Below are positions 21,910-51,954 of a DNA stretch of 64,000 bases, piece after piece. Position 1 is the stretch's first letter; each line of letters opens with the position of its first letter. Under the pieces are notes generated by a model. It worked only from the letters and a program-made list of their open reading frames with translations, made no database searches and was not told where the DNA came from. This DNA is from Candidatus Omnitrophota bacterium (GTDB lineage: Bacteria; Omnitrophota; Gorgyraeia; Duberdicusellales; Duberdicusellaceae): positions 2,813-66,812 of the forward strand of contig JAFGCB010000024.1 in the NCBI GenBank assembly GCA_016932855.1, written 5' to 3'. Position numbers and translations under genes: made by a program.

Positions 21910-24111
21910 CTACCGCTTTGTTGTTGGTAGTTCCATGTAAAAGGTTGAGCCCTTCATGTATTCCGATTCAAACCAGATTTTACCCCTGTGGTTTTCTTCA
22001 ACAATTCTTTTTATAACGTACATCCCAAGGCCGGTTCCGGATTTTGCCGATGATTTGGTGGTATAAAAAGGAGCGAACATCTTGGATTTATTCTCTTCGG
22101 CTATGCCGATCCCGTTATCACTGACTTTTACAAGCAAGGAACCTTCAAGAGGCTGTAATTCTATATTCAGCTCTTTTTCGACTTTTTGAGGATTTCCATG
22201 ATTTTTAAGAGCCATCTGCTTATCTTCTATTGCTTCATAAGCATTATCAATTAAGTTAAAAACTGCCTCGGATAGCTGGGCCGGCGAGCCCCAGACCTTG
22301 GGAGTACCGTCAGTAACTTTTATTGAAGGCTTAAAATCTTTGAGGTTATGCTTTACGCCTAAGAGGTCAACCGCAACGTTTATTATCTCGTTTATGTCGA
22401 AGAATCTAAAGGAAGCGTCTTTTTCAGTGCGGGCATAATTAAGAATTCCCCGGATAATCTGGGCTGAATGAAGCACGTTTTTTTCTATTTTATCAAGACC
22501 GTAGAGACAATATTCTAAATCCTTCCTTAAGTTTTCGGGGTTTTCTTTCTCAAGGGTAGTCTGCACTACGTCTTTTAAGTCTCCGGCAACCGCGGCAAAA
22601 GCCTGGAGACGGTTATTTAACTGGTGCGATACCCCTTCAGCCATAGCACCGACTGTAGCTAATTTATCAGCGTGGAATATCTTCTCCTGCGTTTTCTTAA
22701 ACTCTTCCAGAAACAAGCAGTTCTCAATTGCCAAAGAAGCCTGGTGCGCTAAAATCTTAAAGACATTTATATCATCCTCCGTAAAAACCTGCTTATTCGG
22801 TTTCGAGCCTAACGCTAATATGCCTAGAAGGTCTCTTTCGGTAAGTGAAGGGATTACTAAATGGAGCTTGAATCTTTCGAAAAATTCTTTAATTTCCTTT
22901 TGATTGGCGCTATCTTGAATAACAAAGGGGATATCTTCCAATAATAAAGCCTCTTGGGTTTTTAAAAGATATTCAATAATCGGATGGTCGTGAGAGATTG
23001 CAACCTCCTCTTTAAATAATTCTCTATCCCGGTAAGCTTCTAGTTTGTAAACCTTTCGTTCTTTGTCGAAACGGAATATCGCCGCTACATCGACCCGCAC
23101 AGCTTTCGTAACAATATGAACAATTAAATTGATAAGTCGTTTAAGTTCCCGAATTTTCACCATTCCCTGAGCAGCCTGGATTAGTGTTTTTTGGTATCTC
23201 TTTTGCTGGGCCAGTATAAGATTTTCAGCTTTCCTTCGTAAGCGTGTATAAATCAGAGGCCCGGTGCTTGCTAAAAGAAACATTATCGCAGTAGACGGAA
23301 GCCAGGATTGAGTGGTGTATCCTATCCAGAACGGAATACCGAGAACTAAGGCGTATACAAAAGAGAAAATTCCGAAGCGGGTCAAAACAACGTTGATGTC
23401 CATGAGACGGTATTTAAGTATTGCATAGGTAAATATCAAAGGATAGAGAACAATACAGAGGTTGCTATAAGGATAGAGTTTTACACCAATCTCTATTGAC
23501 CACATTAATATTGGACCTAGCCAGCCAATGACTGATGCAACTATGAAATATTTTATTTGATTTCGGAAAATGCCACTAGATCGCTTGTAAGATTTAACTA
23601 GTAATAAGAATGAGAATCCTAAAAGTATCCAGTAAAACGAAATGTAAAAAACCAAATATAGAGGTATTTTATATATCCACCAATCAGAGTAATAAAATTT
23701 ATTAAAAACAAAACTCATTCCGCCTACAAAATATTCCTTGGGGAAAAACAAATTTAGGGATAGGAAAGTGTAAGCCAGTGTATATATGGTAATTAATATA
23801 TATCTGAAATAATCCTTTTTGAGACTAAGGAATGTGTAGATGAAGTGATAATAAAGCACAGGAGTGAGGATAACTCCTATGTTGGCAATTCTCCGCCAGA
23901 AAATTGCAGTCTCAAGGTCAAAGGTTGTAGAGAATTTATATACACCTACGCCCCAAATTGTTGTGAGTATACATAGCCATCCCCAGATTTTAGTTTTAAT
24001 GTTACGAGTCTTTTTGTCTCTCCAGAACAAAAATATTGCCAATAGAGAATTGGTAACAACAACCAAAATTCCAGAAATGCTAAATAAGTTAATATTTTGC
24101 ATAAGAGGCAA
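21910..24111 (-). CDS. sensor histidine kinase, HisKA_7TM-like membrane domain + GAF + HisKA + HATPase_c
   Basis: 733 aa paralog of the 19750 and 34502 kinases; H-box GVSHQLNNRL; last gene of the lipid operon. Confidence 0.8.
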   Translation of the reverse strand: MPLMQNINLFSISGILVVVTNSLLAIFLFWRDKKTRNIKTKIWGWLCILTTIWGVGVYKFSTTFDLETAIFWRRIANIGVILTPVLYYHFIYTFLSLKKDYFRYILITIYTLAYTFLSLNLFFPKEYFVGGMSFVFNKFYYSDWWIYKIPLYLVFYISFYWILLGFSFLLLVKSYKRSSGIFRNQIKYFIVASVIGWLGPILMWSIEIGVKLYPYSNLCIVLYPLIFTYAILKYRLMDINVVLTRFGIFSFVYALVLGIPFWIGYTTQSWLPSTAIMFLLASTGPLIYTRLRRKAENLILAQQKRYQKTLIQAAQGMVKIRELKRLINLIVHIVTKAVRVDVAAIFRFDKERKVYKLEAYRDRELFKEEVAISHDHPIIEYLLKTQEALLLEDIPFVIQDSANQKEIKEFFERFKLHLVIPSLTERDLLGILALGSKPNKQVFTEDDINVFKILAHQASLAIENCLFLEEFKKTQEKIFHADKLATVGAMAEGVSHQLNNRLQAFAAVAGDLKDVVQTTLEKENPENLRKDLEYCLYGLDKIEKNVLHSAQIIRGILNYARTEKDASFRFFDINEIINVAVDLLGVKHNLKDFKPSIKVTDGTPKVWGSPAQLSEAVFNLIDNAYEAIEDKQMALKNHGNPQKVEKELNIELQPLEGSLLVKVSDNGIGIAEENKSKMFAPFYTTKSSAKSGTGLGMYVIKRIVEENHRGKIWFESEYMKGSTFYMELPTTKR

Positions 24112-25566
24112 TTATTTTCCAAATGGCCAATGTTTTCCGAGGTCTTCCAGGATTAACCGTGCGCATCGTCGTCCAGAAAATGCAACATTTGGGATACCGC
24201 CTTGCCCGGAAGAACCAGTGGTTGTCCAGTGGCCAACGAGATAGATCCCATCTATAGAAGTTCGTTGCGGAATAATATTAGATTTAATCTGGTTTAATGT
24301 AGATACCCATCCGAGTACGGCTCCGTTTTTATTTAAGGTGTACCGATGAAATGTATGCGGAGTGGCAAATATTTTGACGTCAATTAAATTACGGAGATCG
24401 TAAAAGACCTTCTCCGATTTTTTAATTATGCGATTGCCGACCTCTATTTTATTCTCATCCCAGAATTTCTTGGAAATATAAGGAGAATATATAAATAGTT
24501 GCATGGTCGGCCTATTGGTGTTGCTTAAGCTTATGTCATGAGCAGATGGGAAACAGCAGAAAAAGTAATCGAGGTCAGCGTTCAATATGTTATATTGCTG
24601 AGAATAAATTCTTGAGTACACTTTCTCGATATCGTAAGTGGCGAAATAGCAAGTATTTATTCTTTCAGCAATTTCATTGTGCGCGTTTTCTTTGAGACCT
24701 AAATATACCAAGAACATAGACGGAGATGGAGTTAGTTTATTAATTGTGTTAAGTTCCTTAGTTTTGACATCAATCAGGTCTCCGAATGTCATGGAAACGT
24801 CTGCATTCGAGATAATTATGTTAGATGCTATTTCATCGCTAGTATCTAGTATTACCTTTTTGATTTTATTAGTTGTAATTATCTTTACAACCTTGCGGGA
24901 GAAAATTATCTCTCCTCCTCGCTCTTTTAATTTCTTTACTAGCATATTTGGCAGAGTTTGAATGCCACCTTTTGGATAATAGCCAGAATCCAAAACATAC
25001 TCTCGAAATAGAATTATAGCTGAGATAGCTGCGGCTTTTTTAGGAGAAAGTGCAATATTACTTGATAGGCCACCTAAAACAGATTTTAGATTTGGATCTC
25101 GAAAAAAATAATCCAGGGTTTCTTGAAAGACTTGTCCCTTAACTTTTTTATAAATATTAAAAAGCTGTTCTTGCAGAATGAAGCCGAAAAACTTTTCAAG
25201 ATTTTTTCGTTCTTTAGGGAAGCTTTTTTGAAATTCCGTTAGTGTATTTTTGGGACAAGCCCGAATGTATGTAGTATTATCGGGGAATATTATTTTATCA
25301 GTTGGATCAGCTTGGGAAAATTCGAGGCTTTCGTCCATTTGTAGCTCTCGGAGAGTTTTGCCTAATATTCCTCGCTTGATGCCGCCTAGGTAGTGTACTC
25401 CAATGTCAAATTTATAACCCTTTCGTTCAAAAGAAGTGCAGTAGCCACCTGGTTTATCATGCTTTTCGATGATTAAAACCTTTAATCCGGCTTTTGATAA
25501 ATAATTTGCGCAGATTAAGCTTCCAATGCCAGAACCTACGAATATTGCATCAAATTGGGTGTTCAT
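24112..25566 (-). CDS. FAD-dependent oxidoreductase, phytoene desaturase (CrtI)-like family
   Basis: N-terminal dinucleotide-binding fold FDAIFVGSGIGSL...LIIEKHDKPGGY; 484 aa. Confidence 0.7.
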   Translation of the reverse strand: MNTQFDAIFVGSGIGSLICANYLSKAGLKVLIIEKHDKPGGYCTSFERKGYKFDIGVHYLGGIKRGILGKTLRELQMDESLEFSQADPTDKIIFPDNTTYIRACPKNTLTEFQKSFPKERKNLEKFFGFILQEQLFNIYKKVKGQVFQETLDYFFRDPNLKSVLGGLSSNIALSPKKAAAISAIILFREYVLDSGYYPKGGIQTLPNMLVKKLKERGGEIIFSRKVVKIITTNKIKKVILDTSDEIASNIIISNADVSMTFGDLIDVKTKELNTINKLTPSPSMFLVYLGLKENAHNEIAERINTCYFATYDIEKVYSRIYSQQYNILNADLDYFFCCFPSAHDISLSNTNRPTMQLFIYSPYISKKFWDENKIEVGNRIIKKSEKVFYDLRNLIDVKIFATPHTFHRYTLNKNGAVLGWVSTLNQIKSNIIPQRTSIDGIYLVGHWTTTGSSGQGGIPNVAFSGRRCARLILEDLGKHWPFGK

Positions 25567-26153
25567 TTAATGTAGTTAACGCTGTCTTTTATTGGCTTTC
25601 GGAGAGATCGTGTATTTCTCTGGCTCGCGTATCCGAGTGTGATTACAGCAACCATTTTGCCTTTGTGTCTAAGCAATTTATTTATTTTCTGTGCTTGAAG
25701 TAACGGCGTATCAAGCCAACAAGAGCCAACCCCAAAACTTTCCGCTACTAACATCATATTTTGTATAGCTGCGGCGATGGCGGACAGTTCAACAATATCA
25801 AGGATTCGCTCAAATTTTAAGTACAGTTGCTTGAGTCTGTGTCTCATTGCGTGCATATCTCCAGAATTATAAACAATAATGATGGCTGCCGCGCTACGAA
25901 TTATATTGCTTGCAGAATACTCTAGCAGATTGGATACTGTCTTCGTAGAGGAATCGGCTCTTAATAAAAGTTGAGCAATCTCAACTATAGTTTTTTTGTT
26001 AGTTATCGCGAAGAACTTCCATGGTTGGTAATGATGAACGGCAGGTCCCCATATTCCAGCTTCAATAATTTTCGAGAGAATATTATGAGGTATTCGTTTT
26101 TTCTTATATTCTCGTACACACTGTTTAGACTTTATTAAGCGTAATAATTCCAT
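25563..26153 (-). CDS. nitroreductase family protein
   Basis: 196 aa; N-terminal RIPHNILSKIIEAGIWGPAVHHYQPW nitroreductase-like; 4-bp overlap with the downstream gene. Confidence 0.6.
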   Translation of the reverse strand: MELLRLIKSKQCVREYKKKRIPHNILSKIIEAGIWGPAVHHYQPWKFFAITNKKTIVEIAQLLLRADSSTKTVSNLLEYSASNIIRSAAAIIIVYNSGDMHAMRHRLKQLYLKFERILDIVELSAIAAAIQNMMLVAESFGVGSCWLDTPLLQAQKINKLLRHKGKMVAVITLGYASQRNTRSLRKPIKDSVNYIK

Positions 26154-27241
26154 CTTTTTTCCCCGATTATATCATAAATCGACTTTTGTTCATGGTAATA
26201 TTGAAACGACGGCAATAATTTTTGATCAGTGATCTGTGGAATTCGGAAATTATAACCATCAAGAGTTTTTTGTGTATGTATATAACAGAATTTTGTTGTA
26301 TAGTTAAAGTAGGGTATATATGGTGATGCTAAGATTTTTTGCGCAGGAGTCCAATAAGAATAATCAAACCTCTCAGCCGGTATTAGCCTCGGTGTTCGAA
26401 ATTGAAAAAAACGCGAGGCCAAATCCATGAATTTACCAACATTAAAGGGTTTTGGCGAAACAACATGATAAGTAGTATTGCTGCCCTGATCCCCTAGTAA
26501 AAAAAATACTTTTGCCACTGTATCGATGTTGATTAGATTTTGGTGACAATCAATGTTGATAGGAAACTCATTGTAGATCTCTTTGGAAAAAAAACGAATC
26601 GGTTCGTAGAAAAGTCGGAAAGTGGTGGCTTGGCCAGTCTTGGAATGCCCTATAACCATACTAGGTCTAAAAACAGAAATATTCAGTCCTTTTACGCGAT
26701 AGTCTTGGACTAAAAGCTCGGCTTCATATTTTGTCTGTTCGTAGGTGTTGTTAAATCCCTGGCCGAGCTCTAATTCGTTCTCTCTAAAGTTATAGTCATT
26801 TTTTGTCCCTACTACGTATGCTGTGCTTATATGGTTAAACTTTTCAAGCTTCGGGAATTTCAAAGCGAAATCAAGAACATTTTTTGTGCCCAGAACGTTT
26901 ATTTTTCGGATTACTTCGAGTTCAACTCTTAATTTTGCCAGGGCTGCGCTGTGAAAGATTATTTCGCAATCAGCGCGAATCTCGTCGATTAATTGTTTTG
27001 ACTTTATGCCTAAGTCGGTTAAGGTAATATCGCCATCGACTATTACCAGGTTTTTTGGACTTTGGCTGGTATGTTCTTCAGTCCAGAATTTTAGGGCATT
27101 TAATACTCGCGCCCGCGCAGCTTCTTTTTTACTGCTTCTTGCCAGAGCATAGACTTTACAGCCATTCTCAAGCAGGATTTTTAAAAGATAAGAAGCAACA
27201 AATCCGGTTGCCCCGGTCAATAATACAATTCGTTTTTCCAT
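26135..27241 (-). CDS. thioester reductase-domain (NAD_binding_4, fatty acyl reductase-like) protein
   Basis: LLTGATGFVASYLL Rossmann motif, catalytic YEQTK, alternating CLVR/GDI/HSAA blocks typical of terminal reductase domains. Confidence 0.7.
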   Translation of the reverse strand: MEKRIVLLTGATGFVASYLLKILLENGCKVYALARSSKKEAARARVLNALKFWTEEHTSQSPKNLVIVDGDITLTDLGIKSKQLIDEIRADCEIIFHSAALAKLRVELEVIRKINVLGTKNVLDFALKFPKLEKFNHISTAYVVGTKNDYNFRENELELGQGFNNTYEQTKYEAELLVQDYRVKGLNISVFRPSMVIGHSKTGQATTFRLFYEPIRFFSKEIYNEFPINIDCHQNLINIDTVAKVFFLLGDQGSNTTYHVVSPKPFNVGKFMDLASRFFQFRTPRLIPAERFDYSYWTPAQKILASPYIPYFNYTTKFCYIHTQKTLDGYNFRIPQITDQKLLPSFQYYHEQKSIYDIIGEKRWNYYA

Positions 27242-27256
27242 TACAGTTCGCTAAGT

Positions 27257-28480
27257 TTATTTGTTATTTAAGCTGCCAAATACCACACAACAATTATTTC
27301 CGCCAAACGCAAAGCCGTTATTTAGGACAATTTTTACTTCTTTTTTTCTAGCCGTATTAGGCACACAATCTATATCACATTCAGGGTCAGGGGTTTCATA
27401 ATTTATTGTGGGCGGGATTAGGCTATTTTCAATAACCAAGCAGCAGACTGCCGCCTCAATCGCCGAGGCTGCGCCCATAGGATGACCAAGCATTGATTTA
27501 ACGGAACTTACAGGAACTTTATAATCCGCGAAGACATCTTTTATAGCTGCGCATTCAACTTTGTCGTTAGTTGGGGTTCCGGTGCCATGGGCGCAGATAT
27601 AATCTACATCCCTGGTAGATAAACCAGCGTCTTTAATCGCCTTTTTCATCACATTCGCAACTCCTTTTGGGTCAGGAGCGGTTATGTGGTAGGCATCACA
27701 GGACAGACCATACCCTAAGACTTCCGCGTATATTTTGGCGTTTCGTTTAAGAGCTGATTCTAAAGACTCCAGAAGTATTACTCCCGCGCCTTCTCCTAAA
27801 ATTAAGCCCTTTCGGTTTTTATCAAACGGCTGGGGTTTTTCAGGGGCCATGCTGTAAAGGCGTTGAAAGCCGACATAGGCGACATGAGAAAAGGCTTCGG
27901 CGCCACCGGCAAGTATAAAATTTAAGTCTCCTTTTCTGATTAAATCATATCCATAGCCGATAGCGTAATTTCCGGCAGCGCAGGCAGTGGGGATTAAGCA
28001 ATTTAATCCCATTGCCTTAAATTGTATCCCGACATTAGCCGGGATATTGTGAACTGCTGCCTGAAGGACTCTTGTCCGGTCAACCTCTTTAAGCCCGCCT
28101 TTTGCCCAGGATTCTATCAATTCTTCCATTGGACGTTCGCCTACCGTAGTCCCGAAGATAATTCCGAATTTTTTTGAGTCGATAGCCGAAGGGTTGAGTT
28201 TCGCGTCTTCCAAGGCCAGATGAGCACCGGCTATCGCCAGCTGCGAGGTTTTCCCGAGAAACCTTGTTTTTCGTTTCGGGATAAAGGCGGCAGGATCAAA
28301 ATCTTTTATTTCACCTCCGTATTTGCAACGAAAACCTTCGGTATCAAAGGAGGTAATTTTACTTACCCCGGATTTTCCGGCGGTCAAGGCTTTCCAGAAA
28401 CCATCTTTCCCTGTTCCGATTGACGATATTACTCCCAGTCCGGTTACAACTATACGTCTTTTATTCCTCATATTTTGCAA
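27257..28480 (-). CDS. beta-ketoacyl-ACP synthase II-like, catalytically intact
   Basis: Active-site Cys in PTACAAG; both His present (CAHGTGT, MLGHPMG). Confidence 0.85.
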   Translation of the reverse strand: MQNMRNKRRIVVTGLGVISSIGTGKDGFWKALTAGKSGVSKITSFDTEGFRCKYGGEIKDFDPAAFIPKRKTRFLGKTSQLAIAGAHLALEDAKLNPSAIDSKKFGIIFGTTVGERPMEELIESWAKGGLKEVDRTRVLQAAVHNIPANVGIQFKAMGLNCLIPTACAAGNYAIGYGYDLIRKGDLNFILAGGAEAFSHVAYVGFQRLYSMAPEKPQPFDKNRKGLILGEGAGVILLESLESALKRNAKIYAEVLGYGLSCDAYHITAPDPKGVANVMKKAIKDAGLSTRDVDYICAHGTGTPTNDKVECAAIKDVFADYKVPVSSVKSMLGHPMGAASAIEAAVCCLVIENSLIPPTINYETPDPECDIDCVPNTARKKEVKIVLNNGFAFGGNNCCVVFGSLNNK

Positions 28481-29732
28481 TTATCGCGCTGGCGTTTCCT
28501 CCACCGGGGCCAAAATTGTTTATTAAAATATTATTAAGGGATTCATGCCTAGCTGAGTTAGGAACGTAATCAAGGTCACATCCGGATGCATTTCCTTCAA
28601 AATTTATTGTAGGAGGGATAACCGCATTTTTTAAAGCTCCTATAGAGGCCGCAATTTGTAATCCTCCATTGGCGCTTACGCTTTCACCGATCATTGACTT
28701 AATCGAGCTTACCGGGATGCTTTTCGAATAAAGTTTAAAGACTTTTTTTATGGCTTCAGTTTCAAGCGTATCCTGCACAGGGACTGAATTGGCAGAGGCG
28801 CAGATGTAGTCTATCTCTTCGGTATTAAGCTCTGCATTCTCTATTGCTCTTGTCATACTTTGGATAAGTCCCTCGGCCTTAGGGGCGTATTTACCGGTTT
28901 TGTAGGCGTCAAAAGAATTTTCAACGCTAAGAATTTCCGCCAGGATATTCGCCTTGCGTTTTTGAGCATATTCTTTATTTTCAATAACCAACGTCGTTGT
29001 TCCTTCGCCGAGAACTATGCCGTTATGTCTTTTATCGTAAGGACAGCTGATTTCAGGGCCTTTTAATCCGGCAAGAAATCCGATTTTATAAAATCCGGTA
29101 AAGTTGGAAAAGGAGAAGCTTTCAATCCCGCAGACAAGAACGATTTGAGCCCGGCCCAGTCTTATCAAATCAATAGCATACTTAAGGGCGTCAAGACCGG
29201 CTGTATAGCCGGTAGATATAGTCGTGTTGAAAGCCCTTGCTTTAAATCGTATAGACAACTGACTGGATGGAAAATTCATGGTAGTAGGCGGAAATAAAGC
29301 CGGGTTAACAAGCTGGGCTCCTTCGTCTACTTGTTCTTTAGTAAATTTTGCCAGATCCGAGGTAATTGAAAGCGTAGTCGCGGTTACCACTCCGATATCG
29401 TCAGCATTCTCGTCGGTTATCTGCAAGTTTGCGTCATCTAAGGCTAATTTTACTCCGGAGCAGAGCAGGGTTGTAGTGCGGTCAAGATTTCTTAAACCCT
29501 TAGTGCCTAAAAAATCTTCAGCTTTGAAATCAGTACATTCTCCGGCAGTTTTAGTCTTAAAAAAGGAGACATCAAAAAGAGTTATGGGTTTAATTCCCGA
29601 TTGGCCAGCATTGAGCGCTTTCCAAAAGGCTTCCTTGCCTGTTCCGTTAGGAGAAATAACACCGATTCCGGTAACTACGACTTGTTTGGCGTTCATTTTT
29701 TTACGTATCCAGGTTTCGTTCAATAATTTCAA
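28461..29732 (-). CDS. ketosynthase-like partner lacking catalytic residues (chain-length-factor-like)
   Basis: KS fold, but Cys replaced (ISTGYTAG) and both His replaced (CASANSV, MIGESVS); 20-bp overlap with the catalytic KS. Confidence 0.75.
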   Translation of the reverse strand: MKLLNETWIRKKMNAKQVVVTGIGVISPNGTGKEAFWKALNAGQSGIKPITLFDVSFFKTKTAGECTDFKAEDFLGTKGLRNLDRTTTLLCSGVKLALDDANLQITDENADDIGVVTATTLSITSDLAKFTKEQVDEGAQLVNPALFPPTTMNFPSSQLSIRFKARAFNTTISTGYTAGLDALKYAIDLIRLGRAQIVLVCGIESFSFSNFTGFYKIGFLAGLKGPEISCPYDKRHNGIVLGEGTTTLVIENKEYAQKRKANILAEILSVENSFDAYKTGKYAPKAEGLIQSMTRAIENAELNTEEIDYICASANSVPVQDTLETEAIKKVFKLYSKSIPVSSIKSMIGESVSANGGLQIAASIGALKNAVIPPTINFEGNASGCDLDYVPNSARHESLNNILINNFGPGGGNASAIIAKYEE

Positions 29733-30078
29733 GAAATTCGTTTGTATCGAACGGTTTATGCAGGTAGCCGGCGACTTTTAAGTTGACTGCCGATTTGTAT
29801 TTATCTTCGTCCACAAAACCGGTAATGAAAACTTCGGGAATCGGTGCTTTTCCCTGTTTTTGGCGAAAGTCACGAATTGACTTTATGGTTTCTATGCCGT
29901 CCATCTCCGGCATTCGTATATCGCAGACTATCATATGGAAATCGTCATTTTGAATCTTCGTAAGAGCATCCGCTCCCCCGTAAGCAATCGTTACCTCATA
30001 GCCTTTCTCTTGGAGTAATTTTTGCAGACTTTTCGTTATAATTTTCTCATCCTCGATTATTAAGATTTTATTTTTCAT
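29701..30078 (-). CDS. single-domain response regulator (CheY-like receiver)
   Basis: 125 aa; acidic pocket IEDE and phospho-Asp in VCDIRMPEMDG; embedded in the lipid operon. Confidence 0.8.
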   Translation of the reverse strand: MKNKILIIEDEKIITKSLQKLLQEKGYEVTIAYGGADALTKIQNDDFHMIVCDIRMPEMDGIETIKSIRDFRQKQGKAPIPEVFITGFVDEDKYKSAVNLKVAGYLHKPFDTNEFLEIIERNLDT

Positions 30079-30548
30079 TATACGCCCCTTTTGTTATTTT
30101 CTTTTAATTTGACTCCGAAAAAAATACGCGCTCGCGCCACTACTTCGTTTTCGACTAAGGCACGGGCTTCGACCATCCCGCTATTATTAAGGATTTTTGC
30201 GGCATTGACTTCTAGAGTCAGCTGGCTACCTGCGGATACAGGCTTAAGGAAATGCGCGTCGACTTTTCCAAGATAATACGACGGTTTTTTATTGGCAATA
30301 TCAGGTTTAAGGACGGAATAAAGGATAATGCTTGCTTGGGCCAGAGCTTCGATGATTATGGCGCCGGGAACAACGGGGTTTTTCGGGAAATGCCCCTGAA
30401 AGAAATGTTCGTTGTAGGAAAAATTTTTCAGGCACTTTATTTTTTTATCCTTTTCGTTAATTTCGGTCACTCTATCGATAAATAAAAACGGATAGTCTTG
30501 GGGAAGAATTGCTTTGATTTGTTCGATATCCCAAATCGCACTCATCAT
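30078..30548 (-). CDS. 3-hydroxyacyl-ACP dehydratase, FabZ/FabA hot-dog family
   Basis: HFFQGHFPKNPVVPGAIIIEALAQ catalytic His motif. Confidence 0.8.
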   Translation of the reverse strand: MMSAIWDIEQIKAILPQDYPFLFIDRVTEINEKDKKIKCLKNFSYNEHFFQGHFPKNPVVPGAIIIEALAQASIILYSVLKPDIANKKPSYYLGKVDAHFLKPVSAGSQLTLEVNAAKILNNSGMVEARALVENEVVARARIFFGVKLKENNKRGV

Positions 30549-30797
30549 TCATTTGTTTAGTGACTTTAAGACAACTTCATATACATTCTCTAGAGACCGT
30601 ATATTCGGTATTTCTTCTTCAGGTATGGTTACTTTATATTTCTTTTCAATGCTGGCTACAATTTCTAATGCCATCATGCTGTCTACGCCCAGCTCGTCGG
30701 CAAAGCTGGCATCATCACGAAGCTCACTTTCGGGCATTTCCACGATCTCCGAGACAGCCTTTTTTATTTCTTTTTTGATTTGTTCAGGCTTGGCCAT
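30549..30797 (-). CDS. acyl carrier protein
   Basis: 82 aa; phosphopantetheine attachment site DLGVDSMMALE. Confidence 0.85.
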   Translation of the reverse strand: MAKPEQIKKEIKKAVSEIVEMPESELRDDASFADELGVDSMMALEIVASIEKKYKVTIPEEEIPNIRSLENVYEVVLKSLNK

Positions 30798-30815: not shown

Positions 30816-31565
30816 TTAAATTGCCAATCCTCCGTCGATCTTTATAACTTCACCTGTTATGTATTCAGATTCACCGGAAGCAAGAAACGCGCAGAGGTTT
30901 GCAACTTCGTTTGCGGTCCCCATCCTTTTTACTGGTATATTTTCGATTATCTTTTTTTTGACATCATCGCGTAAAGCGGTGACCATCTCCGTGGCGATAT
31001 ATCCGGGGCATATGGTATTGACTCGGATATTGTATGACGCAATTTCTTTTGCCAGGGCTTTCGAAAAGCCGATTATGCCGGCCTTTGAAGCGCAGTAATT
31101 AGTTTGCCTTGGCGTTCCTGTTAAACCGCTAACAGAGCTGATATTTAGGATACATCCGCTTTTTTGTTTAAGTAGAGTAGTAATGCAGGCTCTTGTCATA
31201 TTGAATGTGCCGTTTAGGTTTGTATCAATGACGTCTTTCCAGTCTTCCAGGGTCATCATCATTAAGGCTTTATCTTTTATTATGCCGGCATTATTTATTA
31301 AAATATCGATTTTCCTGAAATTATCAAGGGTTTTAGTGACTATTTCCCGGCATTGACCATAGTCGCGTACATCTGCCTGTAAGCTTAAATGCTTACATTG
31401 GCAAGTTTTTAGTTTTTTGGCTAATTCTTGGGCTTCGTCTTTACTTTTAGCGTAGGTAAAGACTACATTTGCACCTAGCTGTGCAAAGAGTTCGCAACAG
31501 GCCCGGCCTATTCCGCGAGAGCCACCGGTAATTATAGCAGTCTGATTTTTAAGCGTTTTTTCCAT
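30816..31565 (-). CDS. fabG: 3-oxoacyl-ACP reductase (SDR)
   Basis: TGGSRGIGRA cofactor motif; NAG, S..YxxxK catalytic residues. Confidence 0.85.
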   Translation of the reverse strand: MEKTLKNQTAIITGGSRGIGRACCELFAQLGANVVFTYAKSKDEAQELAKKLKTCQCKHLSLQADVRDYGQCREIVTKTLDNFRKIDILINNAGIIKDKALMMMTLEDWKDVIDTNLNGTFNMTRACITTLLKQKSGCILNISSVSGLTGTPRQTNYCASKAGIIGFSKALAKEIASYNIRVNTICPGYIATEMVTALRDDVKKKIIENIPVKRMGTANEVANLCAFLASGESEYITGEVIKIDGGLAI

Positions 31566-31664: not shown

Positions 31665-33017
31665 TTATTCCTTCGTCACAATAAAAAAATAAATGTAGCC
31701 GAAGTTGTCAGATTCCAGTATAAGTGCTGAATTTGGAATTCCTGAATCAAGAAATAACTTTCTTACGTCATCCTTTGTTCGGGAGACAAATTTCCAGTCG
31801 CAAAACCAATCCGGGCAAATAGGCGGAATGGTCTTTTCACGATTTTTATGAGTCATTATTATTTTACCATTTTTTTCCAATACCTGAAACAAGGCAAAAA
31901 TGAGCTTTTTTAGGACTCTATCCGGCAAATAGTCAATGAGTCCTATGCTGTAGATTAAGTTTTGTTTTACGGGCAGGTGAGCGATCTGTTTATTTCTTTC
32001 AATATTAACCCCTTGTAGGTGCGAAAAGTGAAATTTAATATTCGGAAACTGCTGGTTAGCAAAAGCCTCGGCTGAGAATTTCAAGGCTTCGCCATCCCAA
32101 TCAAGGCATCTGAAAATCACTGTTTTTTCAGTTTTAAGGCTGAGTAAAAGTTCTCTTATTTCTCTGCAGCAGCTGCAGGCAATGCTTAGAATATGTACCG
32201 GTGAAGCTGGAGTTTCGTGAATAAACTCGGTAATAAGGTTTTTAAGGCGGTCTTTACGTGACCGGGCAGCTACCGCGTAAGGGCTTTTTAGAAAAATGTT
32301 ATCGAAATAAAGACCTATATTTTGGGAAACAGGTTTATTTGAATAAATAAATTCAAGAGCCCGGTGGTCTTCGGAATAGCCCCGGGGTTTGTCAAAGGCC
32401 TGTTTTACGATAATGCTTTTATATATCCAGGCGTCTACCAGGCGCCGGAAGTTGTCTTTAATCCGCTGGGTAGTCTTTTTATCGGCAAGAATAAGCTCCA
32501 GGCTGTAACCTTTTAAGAGGATTTTATTATTTAATTGTTCTATAATAGATTCTAATTCAGGTAGATAGGTTTTGTCGGTATAGGTGCCGGGAATAAGACG
32601 GGTTATTTCAGTTATATATTCAAACATATCTTTGGTAAAAAAATCCCGGACCAATAATCTAGCATCAGATTTCCTAATATCTCGAAGAAGTTGGCTTATT
32701 TGAGCTTTGATTAATTCCTTTCTTAAAGACGTTTTTTCATTTTCGTTAAGTCCGGTAAACTCGAGGCCATAGATGGTGTTGCCGTTATCGACAGTTTTTC
32801 GCCAGGCAAGTTTAGCGGTAGTTTTTATTTTAGAGGTTTTACCGGGGAAATTTATTTGTAAGGAGATTTCCGGACTCGATATCACTTGCGATGCGACAAA
32901 ACTTACCCCTCCTTCGCTTAGGTCAATCGAATCACCCGCGCTTTTAGGGGAAAATTTGAGTTTTAAGTTTGCCTTTATTCTGGGATAAGCCCGTTTTTCC
33001 TGGTAATTTTTATTCAT
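31665..33017 (-). CDS. PilZ domain - class I SAM-dependent methyltransferase-like fusion protein
   Basis: N-terminal RAYPR...DLSEGG PilZ motifs; C-terminal ILSIACSCCREI / LDWDGE / IYSIGLIDYL resemble MTase motifs I, post-I and II. Confidence 0.5.
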   Translation of the reverse strand: MNKNYQEKRAYPRIKANLKLKFSPKSAGDSIDLSEGGVSFVASQVISSPEISLQINFPGKTSKIKTTAKLAWRKTVDNGNTIYGLEFTGLNENEKTSLRKELIKAQISQLLRDIRKSDARLLVRDFFTKDMFEYITEITRLIPGTYTDKTYLPELESIIEQLNNKILLKGYSLELILADKKTTQRIKDNFRRLVDAWIYKSIIVKQAFDKPRGYSEDHRALEFIYSNKPVSQNIGLYFDNIFLKSPYAVAARSRKDRLKNLITEFIHETPASPVHILSIACSCCREIRELLLSLKTEKTVIFRCLDWDGEALKFSAEAFANQQFPNIKFHFSHLQGVNIERNKQIAHLPVKQNLIYSIGLIDYLPDRVLKKLIFALFQVLEKNGKIIMTHKNREKTIPPICPDWFCDWKFVSRTKDDVRKLFLDSGIPNSALILESDNFGYIYFFIVTKE

Positions 33018-34501: not shown

Positions 34502-36697
34502 TTAACTTTTTACTTTGCTTTCTTCTTTCATTGCAGGGAGTTGCACGGTGAATACGGCGCCTTGGTTGGGTTCGGATTCTACTGAAATCGTGCCTTTATG
34601 CTTTGCGATAATTGAATGGCAGATAGAAAGCCCTAGACCAAGTCCTTTGCCTACGTCTTTCGTAGTAAAAAACGGGTCGAATATTTTGGAAAGAATACCT
34701 TGTGGTATGCCCGGACCTTCATCTTGGACTTCAATCATTATCGTTTCATCTTTTTTTGAGATAGCTACATGTATTATACCACTTTTCTTTAAGCGTTTAA
34801 TCGCGTCTTTTGCGTTGAGGATTAGATTGGTTACGACTTGTTCAAGCTCATTGTGATTACCGGAAACAAAATATCCGCCTTCGTCTATTTGAGTGTTTAT
34901 TTTGATATTTTCCTGCTCTAACTGGTAGCTGATAAAAGCAATGGTTATATCTAATACTTTTCTTAAATCGACTTTATCAAGTCGTGCGGATTCAAGAGGC
35001 TTCTTGGCGTAAGTCATAAGTTTCTGGACAATTGTCCGGCATCGTTTCGTCGCCTCCTCTATCAGTTCCAGTGATTCTCTGTCTAATTCCGAATCAATCG
35101 GTTTAGCGGCTAAAAGCATTTGAACATTAGTAAGGATTGCGGTTAAGGGGTTATTTATTTCATGGGCCACTCCTCCGGCCAGGGTGCCTACTGTTGCTAA
35201 CTTTTCTGCCTGAACGAGTTGGTTCTGGACTTCCATTAGTTCTTTGGTCCGCTGGCGCACCTGTTCTTCAATATTTTCATAGCGCAAGGCATTATCAATA
35301 GCCAAAGCAGCTTCGGTTACAAAAACAGAAAAGTTATGTAAATCTTCCGAGGTGTAAGGCCTTTTGGAGAGTTTGTCTCCCAAAATAAGGATGTTTAGCA
35401 ATTTTTCTTCCAGGAAACTAGCCACGACTACCTTGGCGTTTAAAAGGGCCATTTCGCTTTCTAGCTGCGTAAAGACAGAGTCAGGATTGTCTTCGGATTT
35501 TCGTTTTACTTCTTCGTATACAAGGGGTTCGTTTTGCTTTTCAAGGTAGTGAATTAAAGGATTTTTTTTGTCGATGGAAATCGGCTGTTTTTCGTTTAGA
35601 TTGCGGCCGGCTTTAAGGATAAATTGGTTAAATTCCGGATCAAAAAGATAAATTGCGGAATGAGAAATACGGACGGTCTTAGTAATCGTATAAGCAATAA
35701 AATCCAGAAGCTTCTTTGAATTACGGATACGGGCTATTCCGATTGCGGCCTGCTTTAGCGTTTCCTGATAGCTGCGCTGTTCCCGCAAAAGTATTGCTTC
35801 AGCGTTTCGCAGTAAATATATATACGCAAAAGGGCCAGTGGTTGCCAAGATTGCCATAAGAATGAGAGGTCCCAGCCACCAGTTTGTCCCCAAAAAAATA
35901 ATTAACCAATCTTTGCCAGCATTGATTAAAAGAAAAGGCAAGCCAAGTACGATAGTGTAAACTGCAACGAATATAGCAGTGCGAGTTACGACTACGCGGA
36001 TATCCATTAGGCGGTATTTGACGATAGCGTAAGCCATCAGGAGTAAATAAATTATAGTCAAAACATCATGCGGAAAAGAAATCTTGATCCCGAAGACTGA
36101 GAGAAAATAAATAGCTGAACCTAGAAAGCCGATAAATGTAGCTAATAGAAAATATTTAAGTTGATCATTCTTATGGGCTATTGATTTTTTATAAAAGGAA
36201 TATGCTTTACAGAAACCGTATGTCGCATATGAGTACCAATAAAAAAGAAAAAAGTAATAACTCACCCCTGGAACGAGATGCGTTTTAATAAAAGGCAAGT
36301 TGCTAGGAGTAATTTCTCTAAAGAAAAAAGGACTAAGCGTTAATAGAAAGCATAATGGAGAAAGAATGAACGAAGACCGGGCCAGATAAAGACCGATTCG
36401 ATCATTTTCTATCTTTTTGCCAGCTATATTATATACAACTAATAGCCAAAACGCAGGCATAAAGGAAACCGGTGCAAAAAAAAGTTTCTCGTAGAATATT
36501 GATGTCGCTACATTTTGTTTCGTCATTGTTATAAAGTGACTAAAACACCAGCTGCTAATGCAAAGACTAAAAACAAAAAAAACAAAGTTTAGGCTGTTTT
36601 TAATGTTTTTGAGTAATACAAAAACACCAATCCCGAAACTAATTAATACAGCGCTTAGGGTAACGGCCTGGTATACGTTCATACTTATATCCGGCAT
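34502..36697 (-). CDS. sensor histidine kinase, HisKA_7TM-like membrane domain + GAF-like + HisKA + HATPase_c
   Basis: 731 aa; third paralog; H-box GVAHEINNPLTAI; KYRLMDIRVV motif in the membrane domain. Confidence 0.8.
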   Translation of the reverse strand: MPDISMNVYQAVTLSAVLISFGIGVFVLLKNIKNSLNFVFFVFSLCISSWCFSHFITMTKQNVATSIFYEKLFFAPVSFMPAFWLLVVYNIAGKKIENDRIGLYLARSSFILSPLCFLLTLSPFFFREITPSNLPFIKTHLVPGVSYYFFLFYWYSYATYGFCKAYSFYKKSIAHKNDQLKYFLLATFIGFLGSAIYFLSVFGIKISFPHDVLTIIYLLLMAYAIVKYRLMDIRVVVTRTAIFVAVYTIVLGLPFLLINAGKDWLIIFLGTNWWLGPLILMAILATTGPFAYIYLLRNAEAILLREQRSYQETLKQAAIGIARIRNSKKLLDFIAYTITKTVRISHSAIYLFDPEFNQFILKAGRNLNEKQPISIDKKNPLIHYLEKQNEPLVYEEVKRKSEDNPDSVFTQLESEMALLNAKVVVASFLEEKLLNILILGDKLSKRPYTSEDLHNFSVFVTEAALAIDNALRYENIEEQVRQRTKELMEVQNQLVQAEKLATVGTLAGGVAHEINNPLTAILTNVQMLLAAKPIDSELDRESLELIEEATKRCRTIVQKLMTYAKKPLESARLDKVDLRKVLDITIAFISYQLEQENIKINTQIDEGGYFVSGNHNELEQVVTNLILNAKDAIKRLKKSGIIHVAISKKDETIMIEVQDEGPGIPQGILSKIFDPFFTTKDVGKGLGLGLSICHSIIAKHKGTISVESEPNQGAVFTVQLPAMKEESKVKS

Positions 36698-36709
36698 AAT
36701 TAGTTTAGG

Positions 36710-38179
36710 TTATTGTTTTCCATTCTTGAATTTATAGGCAAAATCATGCAAATTTAGCCCAAATAGGACAGCCACCAAAGATGCATTTCTTATTTTCCAT
36801 AAGCTTCGGATTACAAAATTAAATCGTTGTTTGTCGAACGAAAGAAAAGCTTTTAACGTAAGCATTAATCTTGTTCGTGAAAATAGAGCGGAAATACTAT
36901 AATTACGTTTTATTAAAACACCGCTTTTCCAGAGATTGACTAGGCGACTATACAGTTGCGGGTAGGAGTATATTTCTTTTAGAACTCGAATGTAGCCTTC
37001 TTCCAGTATTTTTTCGGACATAAATTTTGGTCTAAAACAAACATTGCTAAAAGTATATTTTTCCCAGCTTTCATGCAATAATCTTTGGTCTTTTTTTAAT
37101 CTTTTGTATAAACTTGTACCTACTAAAGGCGTCAGAATAGAAATTTGAGGAAACGCTATGTTAGATTCTTGCACAAAATTGATAATTTCATCAAATGTTT
37201 TTTCATCATCATAATCTTCGCCCAAAACAAAAGCACCCACTATCGAAATTCCAGAATGATGAATCCTATTAATTAATTCAATATATTCATGTCGTTTATT
37301 GACAGTGTTTTTTTTAATTAAATCCAAATTTTCTTGTCGCAAAGATTCGAAGCCGATCAATAATTGTCGACAACCACTCTTGTACATTAACTTCAATAAC
37401 TTATCATCTTTTGCAACATTCAATGAAACTTGTCCCCACCAATATTTAATTTTAAAAGGGGTAATAGCAGTAAAAAGTTCTTTGGCTCGTTCCGTATCAA
37501 AAACTATATTGTCATCGGCGAAAAAAATTCCTTTTCTTTTATCAATTCTTAATAAAGTTTCAATCTCGTGGATAACATTCTGGATTGGCTTTGGCCGGTA
37601 AGTATTACCTAAAAATGAAGTCACAGAACAAAATTCACATTTAAACGGGCACCCCCTAGCGGTTTGCATAATGTGAATATTATAAAGCTTATTTTTTAGC
37701 AAATCCCATCGCGGTACAGGAGAATGTGCTAAATCCGGAAATTTAGGTGCGTAATATATACTTTTAAGCTTTCTCTGACGAAAATCCTTTATTATGTCGG
37801 ACCATATCAGTTCTGCTTCTCCGACAACTACAGAATTTGCAAATTTAGAAGCTTCTTCAGGTAACATAGATGCATGAATTCCTCCTAGAATTACCGGTAT
37901 ATTTCGTTTTCGAAAATTATTTGCTATTTCATAGGCGCGCGGAGCTAGCGACGTATTAAACGTAATTCCTATTAAATCAACATCCTGTTGATAATTAATT
38001 GATTCGATGTTTTCGTCGATAAGTGTTATTTTGACATCTTTTGGAGTCAAGGCGGCTATGGTTGGTAATGCTAAAGGGGCACCCCCGCCGTATTTTCTAC
38101 CCAAAAGCTGAGCGGCAAATTTAAAATCCCAAAAATCGTAATCATCTTTTCTTGCAGGAGATATTAAAGCAAGTTTCAT
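36710..38179 (-). CDS. B12-binding domain radical SAM protein
   Basis: N-terminal cobalamin-binding-like Rossmann region; CPFKCEFCSV CxxxCxxC radical SAM cluster motif; 489 aa. Confidence 0.8.
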   Translation of the reverse strand: MKLALISPARKDDYDFWDFKFAAQLLGRKYGGGAPLALPTIAALTPKDVKITLIDENIESINYQQDVDLIGITFNTSLAPRAYEIANNFRKRNIPVILGGIHASMLPEEASKFANSVVVGEAELIWSDIIKDFRQRKLKSIYYAPKFPDLAHSPVPRWDLLKNKLYNIHIMQTARGCPFKCEFCSVTSFLGNTYRPKPIQNVIHEIETLLRIDKRKGIFFADDNIVFDTERAKELFTAITPFKIKYWWGQVSLNVAKDDKLLKLMYKSGCRQLLIGFESLRQENLDLIKKNTVNKRHEYIELINRIHHSGISIVGAFVLGEDYDDEKTFDEIINFVQESNIAFPQISILTPLVGTSLYKRLKKDQRLLHESWEKYTFSNVCFRPKFMSEKILEEGYIRVLKEIYSYPQLYSRLVNLWKSGVLIKRNYSISALFSRTRLMLTLKAFLSFDKQRFNFVIRSLWKIRNASLVAVLFGLNLHDFAYKFKNGKQ

Positions 38180-38243: not shown

Positions 38244-39812
38244 TTAAACCTTAGCAGTTTCTTTTATTTTTTCAATAAGTGGCTTATCGACTAATCGGTT
38301 TCCCCAGTGGAAATCAGAGACTTCAAAGCCGTGTTTTTTGCCGAGGTTTCTTATTTCATCAATCTTTTCTATGGTTATGTTTCCGCGTCCGAAACTAAAG
38401 TTTTCAAAGCGTTTTTCTAGCGCAAGAATAATTGCTTCAGCAAAGCACCCGTACAGAGTCTCAGTTGTGGGCAGGCCGGTGTCGAAAGGAAATGTAATCG
38501 GCGTGGGAGTTTTGGTTAAGCCTCCGGAGAAAATAAGAATATCTTCCCGGGCGGTGGGCATATAGGAAACATTCTTTGGATATCCGACGTCACAGATTAT
38601 TGCGCCGGGCTTAAACCAACTGACATTAAGAATTGAAGCGCTTACGCTTGCGGCAGCAATAATAATATCAGCATCTCTTACGGCCTTTTCGTTGTCTGTG
38701 GAAGCGACAATTTCAGCTTTGTGTTTTTTTGCTAATTCGTGGCGTAAAGCCCGGAGGTTTGTCTTTGTCCGGCCGGTGATAGTTAATGTTTTTACTTTAT
38801 CGGACAATACTCTTGAGCAAGCGCTTCCGATATCGCCGGTACCACCGATTATAGCGACTTTCACTTGACTTACATCGAGATTTAAAAGTTGCGCGCCTTT
38901 TAGGACTCCATCAATAGCCATGGCTGCGGTAAAGGTATTTCCGGAGGTAAGAGGTACGTCAACTTCATGGGCAGCTTGGTGGCCTATTCTTTCTGCGACG
39001 ATAGAAGTAAAGCCACCCAGGGTTACGATTCCCACTCCTTGTTTTTCAGCGATTTTACAGGCTTTAACAACTTTGGAGAATATTGCCCATTTATCCTTCT
39101 CCATCATATCCGGGATAAAAGTGGCTACAATAAAGCATCCATCTACTGTTTGCCCGGTTTTGGAGCGAAAATCTTTAATGTCTGATAATTTGAACGACGG
39201 TGTTATCTGGAAAAGCTGGCCGAGAAATTCCTGCGACGGTATTTTAAAATCCGGGTTTAACATTTGAAGGCATCTGGCCAGATGATTAAAATTATAGAGA
39301 TGTCCGATAATGCCGAAGCCGGCTAATTTTTCGGTGTCGCCGTTTTTATAGCTGGTATACCTTGTGGATACCAGCCTTTTTTCCAGGGCCATTAATATTG
39401 CGGTAAAGTTGCTAGTAACTATTTGTTTCATAAAAGGTTCGGCAAAATCGCTTATTGCCGGGACACCTGCCCTCAGGTAAACTTTTAGGGAAACTAAAGT
39501 CCCTTCGGGGCGGTCTTCGAATTTCCACTCACCATGAAACTCTTCCAGGTCCCCTTCGATTGTCGTGAAACAGATGGTATTATTTTTTAAATCAAGAGTA
39601 TCTTCCTCTATCCAGCGTATAGGTACCTTGCTTACTTCTATTCGCCAATTTGTTTTCATTTTATTGTGAGTTTTCTCAATTACAGTAGCTTCCTTAACAC
39701 AAGGTACATATGACGGGAATTCCCACACTTTGGTTAAAAGTCGAACTACTCTCCATTTTTGGGCAGGGATTATTCTTGAAACGTTTACTTCGATTAGGTT
39801 TTTATCCGGCAT
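38244..39812 (-). CDS. SRPBCC (polyketide cyclase/START-like) domain fused to acyl-ACP reductase (cyanobacterial AAR-like)
   Basis: C-terminal ~340 aa aligns block by block with Synechococcus acyl-ACP reductase as I recall it: FGIIGHL, LGGFTSIV, TSGNTFTA, VAIIGGTGDIGSACSRVL, DVGYPKN, YGCFAEAIILALE, NFSFGRGNITIEKIDEI, KHGFE. N-terminal ~150 aa is an SRPBCC-type lipid-binding fold. Confidence 0.7.
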   Translation of the reverse strand: MPDKNLIEVNVSRIIPAQKWRVVRLLTKVWEFPSYVPCVKEATVIEKTHNKMKTNWRIEVSKVPIRWIEEDTLDLKNNTICFTTIEGDLEEFHGEWKFEDRPEGTLVSLKVYLRAGVPAISDFAEPFMKQIVTSNFTAILMALEKRLVSTRYTSYKNGDTEKLAGFGIIGHLYNFNHLARCLQMLNPDFKIPSQEFLGQLFQITPSFKLSDIKDFRSKTGQTVDGCFIVATFIPDMMEKDKWAIFSKVVKACKIAEKQGVGIVTLGGFTSIVAERIGHQAAHEVDVPLTSGNTFTAAMAIDGVLKGAQLLNLDVSQVKVAIIGGTGDIGSACSRVLSDKVKTLTITGRTKTNLRALRHELAKKHKAEIVASTDNEKAVRDADIIIAAASVSASILNVSWFKPGAIICDVGYPKNVSYMPTAREDILIFSGGLTKTPTPITFPFDTGLPTTETLYGCFAEAIILALEKRFENFSFGRGNITIEKIDEIRNLGKKHGFEVSDFHWGNRLVDKPLIEKIKETAKV

Positions 39813-50826: not shown

Positions 50827-50871
50827 CTTACCTCCTTAAATGTGCGTAGGATAACTTTAATATCCGCGGTA

Positions 50872-51930: not shown

Positions 51931-51954
51931 AATAATAGCTTTTTCTTTTATTTC

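Follow-up and report, generated by a model that had tools for sequence, protein, structure and literature searches.

Two neighbouring ketosynthase (KS) genes on the minus strand of a 64-kb stretch of Candidatus Omnitrophota DNA (contig JAFGCB010000024.1, positions 2,813 to 66,812; called the window in the following) encode, with a probability that we put at about 80%, a condensing enzyme of the amxFabF2/amxFabFmut type known from anammox bacteria, an obligate heterodimer with one subunit from each gene. The downstream gene (beginning at 27257) encodes the active KS and the upstream gene (beginning at 28461) a FabF-like partner that has lost its catalytic triad, referred to here as the dead partner. 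By sequence-based tests the pair appears to belong to the fatty acid synthase (FAS)-like amxFabF2/amxFabFmut family of KS/chain length factor (CLF) proteins, and neither to the CLF of aromatic polyketide synthases (PKS) nor to canonical FabF. It is a known architecture found outside the anammox bacteria and not a new one.

Both proteins contain the N- and C-terminal ketoacyl-synt domains and share 38% identity when compared by BLASTP, each against the other. The best curated family for both is NCBIfam fabF (TIGR03150), but with 429.6 and 334.9 bits they stay below its equivalog cutoff of 493.75. The catalytic columns were placed by three independent alignments (phmmer to B. subtilis FabF 4LS5, MAFFT with references, and BLASTP), which agree on the residues at the catalytic positions of both proteins. 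In the active KS the motifs PTACAAG (Cys), CAHGTGT (His) and SVKSMLGHPMG (Lys, His) as well as both phosphopantetheine (PPant)-binding threonines and the gate phenylalanine are intact, confirming an earlier note on this DNA, according to which this gene keeps the FabF-type triad. The corresponding motifs of the dead partner are ISTGYTAG with Tyr at the Cys position, CASANSV with Ser at the first His and SIKSMIGESVS with Glu at the second His. The lysine is kept, Asn and Val stand at the two PPant-binding threonines, Gln at Glu342 and Pro at the gate Phe, so that the residues at FabF C163/H298/T300/T302/K328/H333/E342/F392 read Y/S/N/V/K/E/Q/P. No Cys is present at its nucleophile column or up to 10 columns to either side in the MAFFT alignment. 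The replacement of all three catalytic residues, also claimed in the earlier note, is therefore borne out by the same three alignments, and the note was right that the Tyr differs from the Gln usual at this position; this clade as a rule has Tyr or Phe there. As this subunit lacks every catalytic residue of the triad, the pair cannot be a symmetric homodimer with two active sites.

The closest solved structure is the amxFabF2/amxFabFmut heterodimer from Brocadia fulgida (PDB 9S5H/9S5I; bioRxiv 10.64898/2026.05.19.726425, May 2026). In phmmer searches the best PDB match of the dead partner is 9s5h_C, which is amxFabFmut (E 3.9e-100, 338.8 bits), with scores of 259 bits for 9s5h_B, 250 for B. 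subtilis FabF, 170 for Iga11, 160 for the actinorhodin KS and 134 for the actinorhodin CLF. The active KS best matches 9s5h_B, which is amxFabF2 (E 1.9e-139, 468 bits), followed by Iga11 (367 bits, E 7.6e-109) and FabF (326 bits), and scores 245 bits against 9s5h_C. Each of the two window proteins thus finds its counterpart chain in one solved heterodimer, and this reciprocal pattern supports the heterodimer of a KSalpha and a chain-length-factor-like KSbeta that had been suggested before, with the correction that the partner is no member of the CLF family of aromatic type II PKS. A direct BLASTP comparison with one Brocadia-type and one Scalindua locus gave the same picture, as the dead partner is 43-45% identical to the anammox mut proteins versus 37-39% to the anammox KS, and the active KS 54-55% identical to the anammox KS versus 36-38% to the mut proteins. 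The neighbouring FabZ and acyl carrier protein (ACP) share 43% and 48% identity with those of the anammox loci, and a CrtI-like flavoprotein is 33-34% identical to the anammox 'PDH' over its full length (E 3e-86), scoring above any curated CrtI model.

The preprint describing the anammox structure reports that amxFabF2 and amxFabFmut co-purify, that each is inactive alone and that together they decarboxylate malonyl-ACP and form acetoacetyl-ACP; isolated amxFabFmut showed neither activity nor probe reactivity. In the crystal only the tunnel starting on amxFabF2 reaches a catalytic triad. This tunnel is lined by Phe135, Thr138 and Val139 from a helix-loop-helix of amxFabFmut, and mutating these residues shifts the chain-length preference in crosslinking assays. 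S. brodae amxFabFmut can also form homodimer crystals, and the helix-loop-helix is disordered in the amxFabFmut homodimer but becomes ordered in the heterodimer only (bioRxiv 10.64898/2026.05.19.726425). At the three tunnel positions the dead partner of the window has F, T and T, and in the active KS all residues listed for tunnel, Mg site, PPant binding and gate are conserved, apart from a single change, A110V. Besides the tunnel residues F135 and T138, the dead partner shares with amxFabFmut H333E, E342Q, the retained K328 and the loss of T300, T302 and F392, the whole series being Y/S/N/V/K/E/Q/P in the window and V/N/Y/G/K/E/Q/R in Brocadia. Differences concern the first His, which is Ser or Ala in the non-anammox proteins and Asn or Cys in anammox, and the gate, which is Pro versus Arg or Asp. 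The nearest solved fold is B. subtilis FabF for the window protein and for amxFabFmut alike.

In a neighbour-joining tree the active KS (amxFabF2 and the window KS, with Iga11 nearby) and the dead subunits (amxFabFmut and the window protein) form separate clades with congruent internal branching. For 53 loci the distance matrices of dead and active subunits correlate with r = 0.92, a value reached in none of 999 permutations, although co-inheritance alone would also yield a correlation. The mean divergence of 0.47 for the dead and 0.42 for the active subunit shows that the former evolves only slightly faster. Near-equal divergence and correlated matrices exclude a decaying pseudogene and fit an obligate pair. 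An AlphaFold2 (AF2) model of the dead subunit is confident (predicted local distance difference test score 88.9, predicted template modelling score 0.89) except for residues 111-139, the helix-loop-helix; as this is the segment reported to be disordered in the amxFabFmut homodimer, we count it in favour of a heterodimer. A Foldseek search with this model returned B. subtilis FabF as the closest structure with a template modelling (TM) score of 0.89, FabF fold matches lying between 0.89 and 0.92. FabF, human mitochondrial KAS and Iga11 but no CLF chain are among the top 50; the PDB copy searched ends in April 2026 and predates 9S5H, which could therefore not be returned.

More than 120 proteins in a large protein database are 57-69% identical to the dead partner and, where named, nearly all come from Omnitrophota. 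Among 119 homologues the Cys position is occupied by Tyr in 90, Phe in 28 and His in one, and the first His mostly by Ala (70) or Ser (44). Lys328, Glu333, Gln342, Asn300 and Phe135 are invariant (each 119/119), Thr138 is found in 116, position 139 is Thr in 108 and Val in 11, and the gate Pro is missing from a single sequence (118/119). A locus scan covering one genome for each GTDB species yielded 80 loci, 44 from Omnitrophota, 24 from Nitrospirota (mostly Thermodesulfovibrionia) and seven labelled Planctomycetia or Planctomycetales, the rest being single Desantisbacteria, Syntrophales, Deltaproteobacteria and unclassified metagenome-assembled genomes (MAGs); a Firestonebacteria locus was found separately. 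The signature of the dead subunit is the same across Omnitrophota, Nitrospirota, Planctomycetota, Desantisbacteria, Syntrophales and Deltaproteobacteria, and the partner KS reads C-H-K-H-F in every complete sequence of the related loci. The conserved core of these loci consists of FabG, dead KS, ACP, FabZ and KS, often followed by a CrtI-like gene and a seven-transmembrane (7TM) histidine kinase, whereas thioester reductase, nitroreductase, SRPBCC-reductase and PlsC genes occur only in subsets.

Among 1.8 billion cluster representatives, searched exhaustively and without a profile, there is a much wider set of Cys-less FabF-like proteins with an x-x-Lys-Glu signature. In dozens of natural fusions of about 800 amino acids among the relatives, an intact KS (C-H-K-H-F) is followed at the C-terminus by a triad-less KS whose residue at the Cys position is very varied. 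Many Nitrospirota and some Omnitrophota clusters (L010-L026, L013, L016, L059 and others) have a third KS directly after the active partner, again with intact C-H-K-H-F and 26-32% identical to the window KS; the window has no such gene. The isolates STC_8 (L060/L072) and Prado152 (L034/L081) each contain two paralogous dead-KS clusters on different contigs.

The maximal minus-strand open reading frames of the two genes, 28461-29732 (423 aa) and 27257-28480 (407 aa), both begin with TTG. An identical NCBI protein of 411 aa indicates that the upstream gene starts at the ATG at 29696 and not at the TTG at 29732, and the gene caller gives 404 aa for the active KS with a start at the ATG at 28471. 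Because both genes start at these called ATGs, they overlap by 11 nt, and the 20 bp given in the earlier note have to be corrected. Its description as a translationally coupled pair is correct for this locus, where the overlap exists. Outside anammox, 66 of 67 related loci have the dead gene ahead of the active one, but the two are direct neighbours in only 10, which makes overlap and coupling a local feature of this sub-lineage. Membership of both genes in the same operon is the general rule among the related loci.

Based on the observed homology, residue states, conservation, co-variation and gene context we can suggest how the enzyme might work. Homology and co-variation lead us to infer that the two window proteins form a heterodimer, in which the active KS would provide the only working Cys-His-His site. 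This site would decarboxylate malonyl-ACP for priming and then perform Claisen condensations on the ACP of the cluster itself. The dead partner would be a folded non-catalytic subunit whose helix-loop-helix (F135/T138/T139) forms part of the acyl-tunnel wall of the active subunit and thereby helps to set the chain length; its own former active site would be dead and is probably plugged by the aromatic side chain, a role for the Tyr that we infer in the same way as the nature of the product. FabG, FabZ, ACP and the pair, with no dedicated enoyl reductase, may generate a special, probably partly unsaturated acyl chain. This chain could then be modified and released for membrane lipids by the products of further genes, namely the CrtI-like flavoprotein, the PlsC-like acyltransferase, the thioester reductase and the acyl-ACP-reductase-like protein, and the product would probably be an unusual lipid chain. 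Thioester reductase, acyl-ACP-reductase-like fusion and acyltransferase-like protein together suggest release as aldehyde or alcohol and/or transfer to a glycerolipid. The set of ACP, FabG and FabZ with no dedicated enoyl reductase is similar to that of highly reducing type II PKS such as the Iga system. It also fits the 'anaerobic polyunsaturated chain' proposal (Rattray et al. 2009, PMC2649909), which concerned the related clusters of anammox bacteria and of Desulfotalea.

Several points weigh against a heterodimer of the anammox type. The anammox pair itself was only seen to catalyse decarboxylation and acetoacetyl-ACP formation and no full elongation (bioRxiv 10.64898/2026.05.19.726425). 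The window clade has Tyr or Phe at the Cys position, where the anammox proteins have Val, Ile or Thr, and the gene order is dead-then-active here and active-then-dead in anammox. Dead and active genes usually do not lie next to each other in related loci. The interface of the anammox dimer is reported to be electrostatically asymmetric, but a crude sequence-level calculation of the net charge of helix-loop-helix and partner helix did not separate the two subunits even in Brocadia and is therefore uninformative here. Tyr instead of Val or Thr at the nucleophile is a clade-specific difference and no loss of the architecture.

Other explanations have to be compared with the heterodimer of the anammox type. 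The pair could be a real heterodimer in a cluster that is simply the housekeeping fatty acid synthase of an organism with a small genome instead of a specialised lipid pathway, and we concede this a small but real chance, as further FAS II genes are missing from the 64-kb window, Omnitrophota very commonly have the cluster, and lipid acyltransferase genes adjoin it here and in locus L002. Against such a role stand the lack of FabD, FabH, FabI and Acc in the cluster, the separate canonical FAS that anammox bacteria have in addition to their own cluster, and the presence of two clusters in some genomes (STC_8, Prado152); moreover, the accessory genes (thioester reductase, CrtI-like, nitroreductase, radical SAM) vary by locus, as is typical of specialised pathways. 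A somewhat slimmer chance is left to the idea that the triad-less protein is a neofunctionalised enzyme or an ACP-binding or regulatory protein, acting alone or as homodimer and catalysing, by means of Tyr/Phe, Lys, Glu and Gln, a reaction that is not a condensation. The loss of both PPant-binding threonines and of the gate Phe is hard to reconcile with an enzyme of this kind, the anammox homologue alone had no activity, no probe reactivity and a tunnel without access to a catalytic triad, and the triad-less gene always co-occurs and co-varies with an intact KS. What speaks for it is that Lys328, Glu333, Gln342 and Asn300 are invariant and the Cys position mostly aromatic, which is tighter than a mere filler might need, together with the homodimer crystals of S. 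brodae amxFabFmut and the distinct function that has been proposed for such paralogues (Rattray et al. 2009, PMC2649909).

A classical aromatic type II PKS, in which KSalpha and KSbeta (CLF) build a poly-beta-keto chain that is then cyclised, would share the architecture of one active and one inactive KS and could make use of the SRPBCC or 'polyketide cyclase' domain encoded in the cluster. We nevertheless regard it as very improbable, as the dead partner has Tyr and not Gln at the Cys position, its match to the actinorhodin CLF (1tqy_B, E 6e-38) is weaker than to FabF (E 4e-73) or amxFabFmut (E 4e-100), FabG and FabZ indicate reducing chemistry, the SRPBCC protein also contains an acyl-ACP-reductase-like domain, and the Foldseek top 50 lacks any CLF chain. 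Least probable of all is a decaying, functionless duplicate next to an ordinary FabF homodimer. The three lost catalytic residues and the failure of both proteins to reach the NCBIfam fabF cutoff might be read in this way, but the full-length frame, the confident AF2 model, more than 100 homologues at 57-69% identity with relatives in several phyla, invariant motifs and near-equal divergence rates do not agree with decay, and the conservation pattern already refutes it.

The anammox 'Cluster I', the putative ladderane cluster, comprises ACP, FabZ, FabF2, FabFmut, PDH and a B12-binding radical SAM enzyme (rSAM; S-adenosylmethionine, SAM), with KustE3605/3606 as heterodimer genes, and the anammox bacteria possess a separate canonical FAS alongside it. 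In the window amxACP-like and amxFabZ-like genes neighbour the pair and the CrtI-like 'PDH' homologue is present as well. A B12-rSAM encoded 7 kb upstream is 35-36% identical to the anammox Cluster I rSAM (E 6e-72). It has more than 120 closer homologues (43-54% identity) in several phyla, among them Omnitrophota, Elusimicrobiota and Actinobacteria as well as a Lokiarchaeia MAG. We do not claim orthology of the rSAM, nor a complete six-gene Cluster I in the window. Neither the window rSAM nor the anammox enzyme reaches the cutoff of NCBIfam 'rSAM_ladder_B12', and an rSAM gene is found near the cluster in only four of the 84 related loci from which neighbouring genes were counted, one of the four being the contig of the window itself (L001). 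The gene occupies a conserved Omnitrophota slot (PlsC, SRPBCC-reductase, rSAM, 7TM kinase, response regulator), a module that can occur without KS genes. The lowest GC content of the window surrounds the rSAM gene (33% in 36001-38000 versus about 40% elsewhere), but a recent foreign insertion was rejected as explanation since the same slot is filled in other Omnitrophota.

It is possible, though on balance doubtful, that Omnitrophota, Thermodesulfovibrionia and other anaerobes share an undescribed pathway of membrane lipids which has the pair at its core and is evolutionarily continuous with anammox Cluster I. It would consist of KS and dead KS, ACP, FabG, FabZ, reductive release enzymes, a CrtI-like flavoprotein and a PlsC-like acyltransferase. 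In that case Cluster I would not be unique to ladderane producers, and a comparison of anammox and non-anammox clusters would pinpoint ladderane-specific genes and residues such as Val/Thr versus Tyr/Phe or the specific rSAM. The extreme version, in which these organisms make ladderane-like cyclised lipids, is unlikely. Omnitrophota are not known to make ladderanes. The predicted heterodimer and most of Cluster I are not confined to ladderane producers, and features that anammox clusters share with the non-anammox ones cannot by themselves explain cyclobutane formation, which provides a comparison set for the long-standing problem of ladderane biosynthesis. With a family that is common in Omnitrophota and Nitrospirota, the pair would mark a widespread uncharacterised lipid pathway in abundant uncultured anaerobes. 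Calls of 'ladderane' by antiSMASH in Omnitrophota and other non-anammox phyla have previously been reported without functional explanation, and syntenic clusters were noted in a deltaproteobacterium (Rattray et al. 2009, PMC2649909).

The two KS genes are part of a tightly packed row on the minus strand that runs from FabG to a histidine kinase (31565 to 21910) with gaps or overlaps of at most about 20 nt (Table 1). The adjacency of the response regulator and the dead-partner gene is kept in the nearest relatives, and kinases come after the cluster in many related loci. The 7TM character of the kinase closing the row was read from its sequence, Pfam having been run on its paralogue at 34502-36697. 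No FabD, FabH, FabI or Acc genes were found in the 64-kb window, the remainder of which is housekeeping, and a promoter and terminator scan of the cluster gave counts no higher than in shuffled sequence.

Table 1. Features of the lipid cluster and its upstream region in the window, listed in the direction of the minus strand; counts refer to the 84 related loci.
Feature	Coordinates	Strand	Remarks
PlsC/acyl-ACP:phospholipid acyltransferase-like protein	39802..40398	(-)	
SRPBCC (START/polyketide-cyclase-like) + acyl-ACP-reductase-like Rossmann fusion	38244..39812	(-)	TIGR04058 AcACP_reductase 183.9 bits, below cutoff 449.7
B12-binding radical SAM protein (DUF4070)	36710..38179	(-)	homologous to anammox Cluster I rSAM
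HisKA_7TM histidine kinase	34502..36697	(-)	Pfam; response regulator 33618-33998 downstream
PilZ + SAM-methyltransferase-like fusion	31665..33017	(-)	weak homologues in 15/84
FabG-type 3-oxoacyl-ACP reductase	30816..31565	(-)	TIGR01830, 305.9 bits, above cutoff; in 65/84
Dedicated acyl carrier protein	30549..30797	(-)	best PDB matches anammox amxACPs (7qv0_D, 7auf_A, 9s5i_E)
FabZ-type dehydratase	30078..30548	(-)	best PDB matches anammox amxFabZ (7qv0_A, E 1.1e-33)
Single-domain CheY-like response regulator	29701..30078	(-)	4 nt upstream of dead-partner gene
Dead FabF-like partner ('mut', CLF-like)	28461..29696	(-)	411 aa, upstream gene
Overlap ATGAGGAATAA, 11 nt	28461..28471	(-)	active-KS start codon inside dead-partner gene end
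Active KS partner	27257..28471	(-)	404 aa, downstream gene
Thioester-reductase-type (NAD_binding_4) protein	26135..27241	(-)	candidate for reductive chain release; in 15/84
Nitroreductase-family flavoprotein	25563..26153	(-)	in 9/84
CrtI/phytoene-desaturase-like flavoprotein	24112..25566	(-)	homologous to anammox Cluster I 'PDH'; in 32/84
Histidine kinase, end of packed row	21910..24111	(-)	N-terminal 7TM character

The reductase-like domain of the SRPBCC fusion resembles the cyanobacterial acyl-ACP reductase and the N-terminal part of PigE, and in Omnitrophota loci this fusion always follows the PlsC-like acyltransferase gene. Directly upstream of FabG a PilZ domain (of the type found in cyclic di-GMP receptors) is fused to a Methyltransf_20 domain, and weak homologues of this protein occupy the same position in Nitrospirota loci. 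A gene of the GxxExxY / PD-(D/E)XK_3 family (TIGR04256) at 33125-33577 lies between the PilZ-methyltransferase gene and the upstream response regulator and probably has nothing to do with the lipid pathway. Three kinases with long multi-pass N-terminal regions (19750-21369, 21910-24111 and 34502-36697) and the single-domain receivers 29701-30078 and 33618-33998 are interleaved with the lipid genes, and this association with kinases and regulators recurs in Omnitrophota and Nitrospirota loci, which hints at sensing of the membrane state coupled to the lipid pathway. The lipid cluster of about 20 kb lies between ispD (41966-42652) and ispF (21366-21824) within the order mcsA-mcsB-clpC ... radA-like ... 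ispD [cluster] ispF ... cysS (also 43819-45156 and 48382-52470), which apart from the cluster resembles the order in Bacillus. Related Omnitrophota clusters have other neighbourhoods, namely gatCAB (L003) and a GMP-synthase-like gene (L002), and together with the Bacillus-like flanks this makes the cluster look like an inserted or relocated block. The operon at 48382-52470 encodes McsA, McsB (protein arginine kinase) and ClpC, a type known from Gram-positive bacteria, here in an Omnitrophota genome.

Among the known systems, the canonical FabF (KAS II) homodimer has the same fold as the dead partner, whereas the window pair scores below the equivalog cutoff and contains one triad-less subunit. 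The actinorhodin KS/CLF (PDB 1TQY) resembles the proposed pair, as its active KS is combined with a non-catalytic homologue that gives the acyl tunnel its shape, but differs in the Gln at the Cys position of its CLF, in its non-reducing chemistry with cyclases and in the KS gene coming first. Iga11 of the ishigamide Iga11/Iga12 system (a highly reducing type II PKS, PDB 6KXD) is the second-best solved match of the active KS, while Iga12 does not appear in the top 60 PDB hits for the dead partner. Like the window, this system combines KS/CLF with ketoreductase, dehydratase and ACP and has no dedicated enoyl reductase, a combination that makes polyenes there; unlike the window, it belongs to the secondary metabolism of an actinomycete and has other tailoring genes. 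Kuste2805, a triad-less FabB/F paralogue of Kuenenia stuttgartiensis located near the B12-rSAM Kuste2803, shows the signature F/N/N/C/K/E/Q/F (Rattray et al. 2009, PMC2649909) and, compared by signature alone, shares with the dead partner the aromatic residue at the Cys position, Asn300, Lys, Glu and Gln. The exact residue signatures of Kuste2805 and Kuste3606 in the table of Rattray et al. have no match among 150 library representatives, and those representatives with a Kuste2805-like signature are 35-42% identical to the window protein. In comparison with the anammox cluster itself, the host is an Omnitrophota bacterium, identical NCBI proteins being annotated as coming from Candidatus Omnitrophica MAGs, and no anammox genes were found in the 64-kb window. 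The window cluster also has FabG, thioester reductase, nitroreductase, the acyl-ACP-reductase-like fusion, the PlsC-like protein, histidine kinases and response regulators in addition to the genes that it has in common with anammox.

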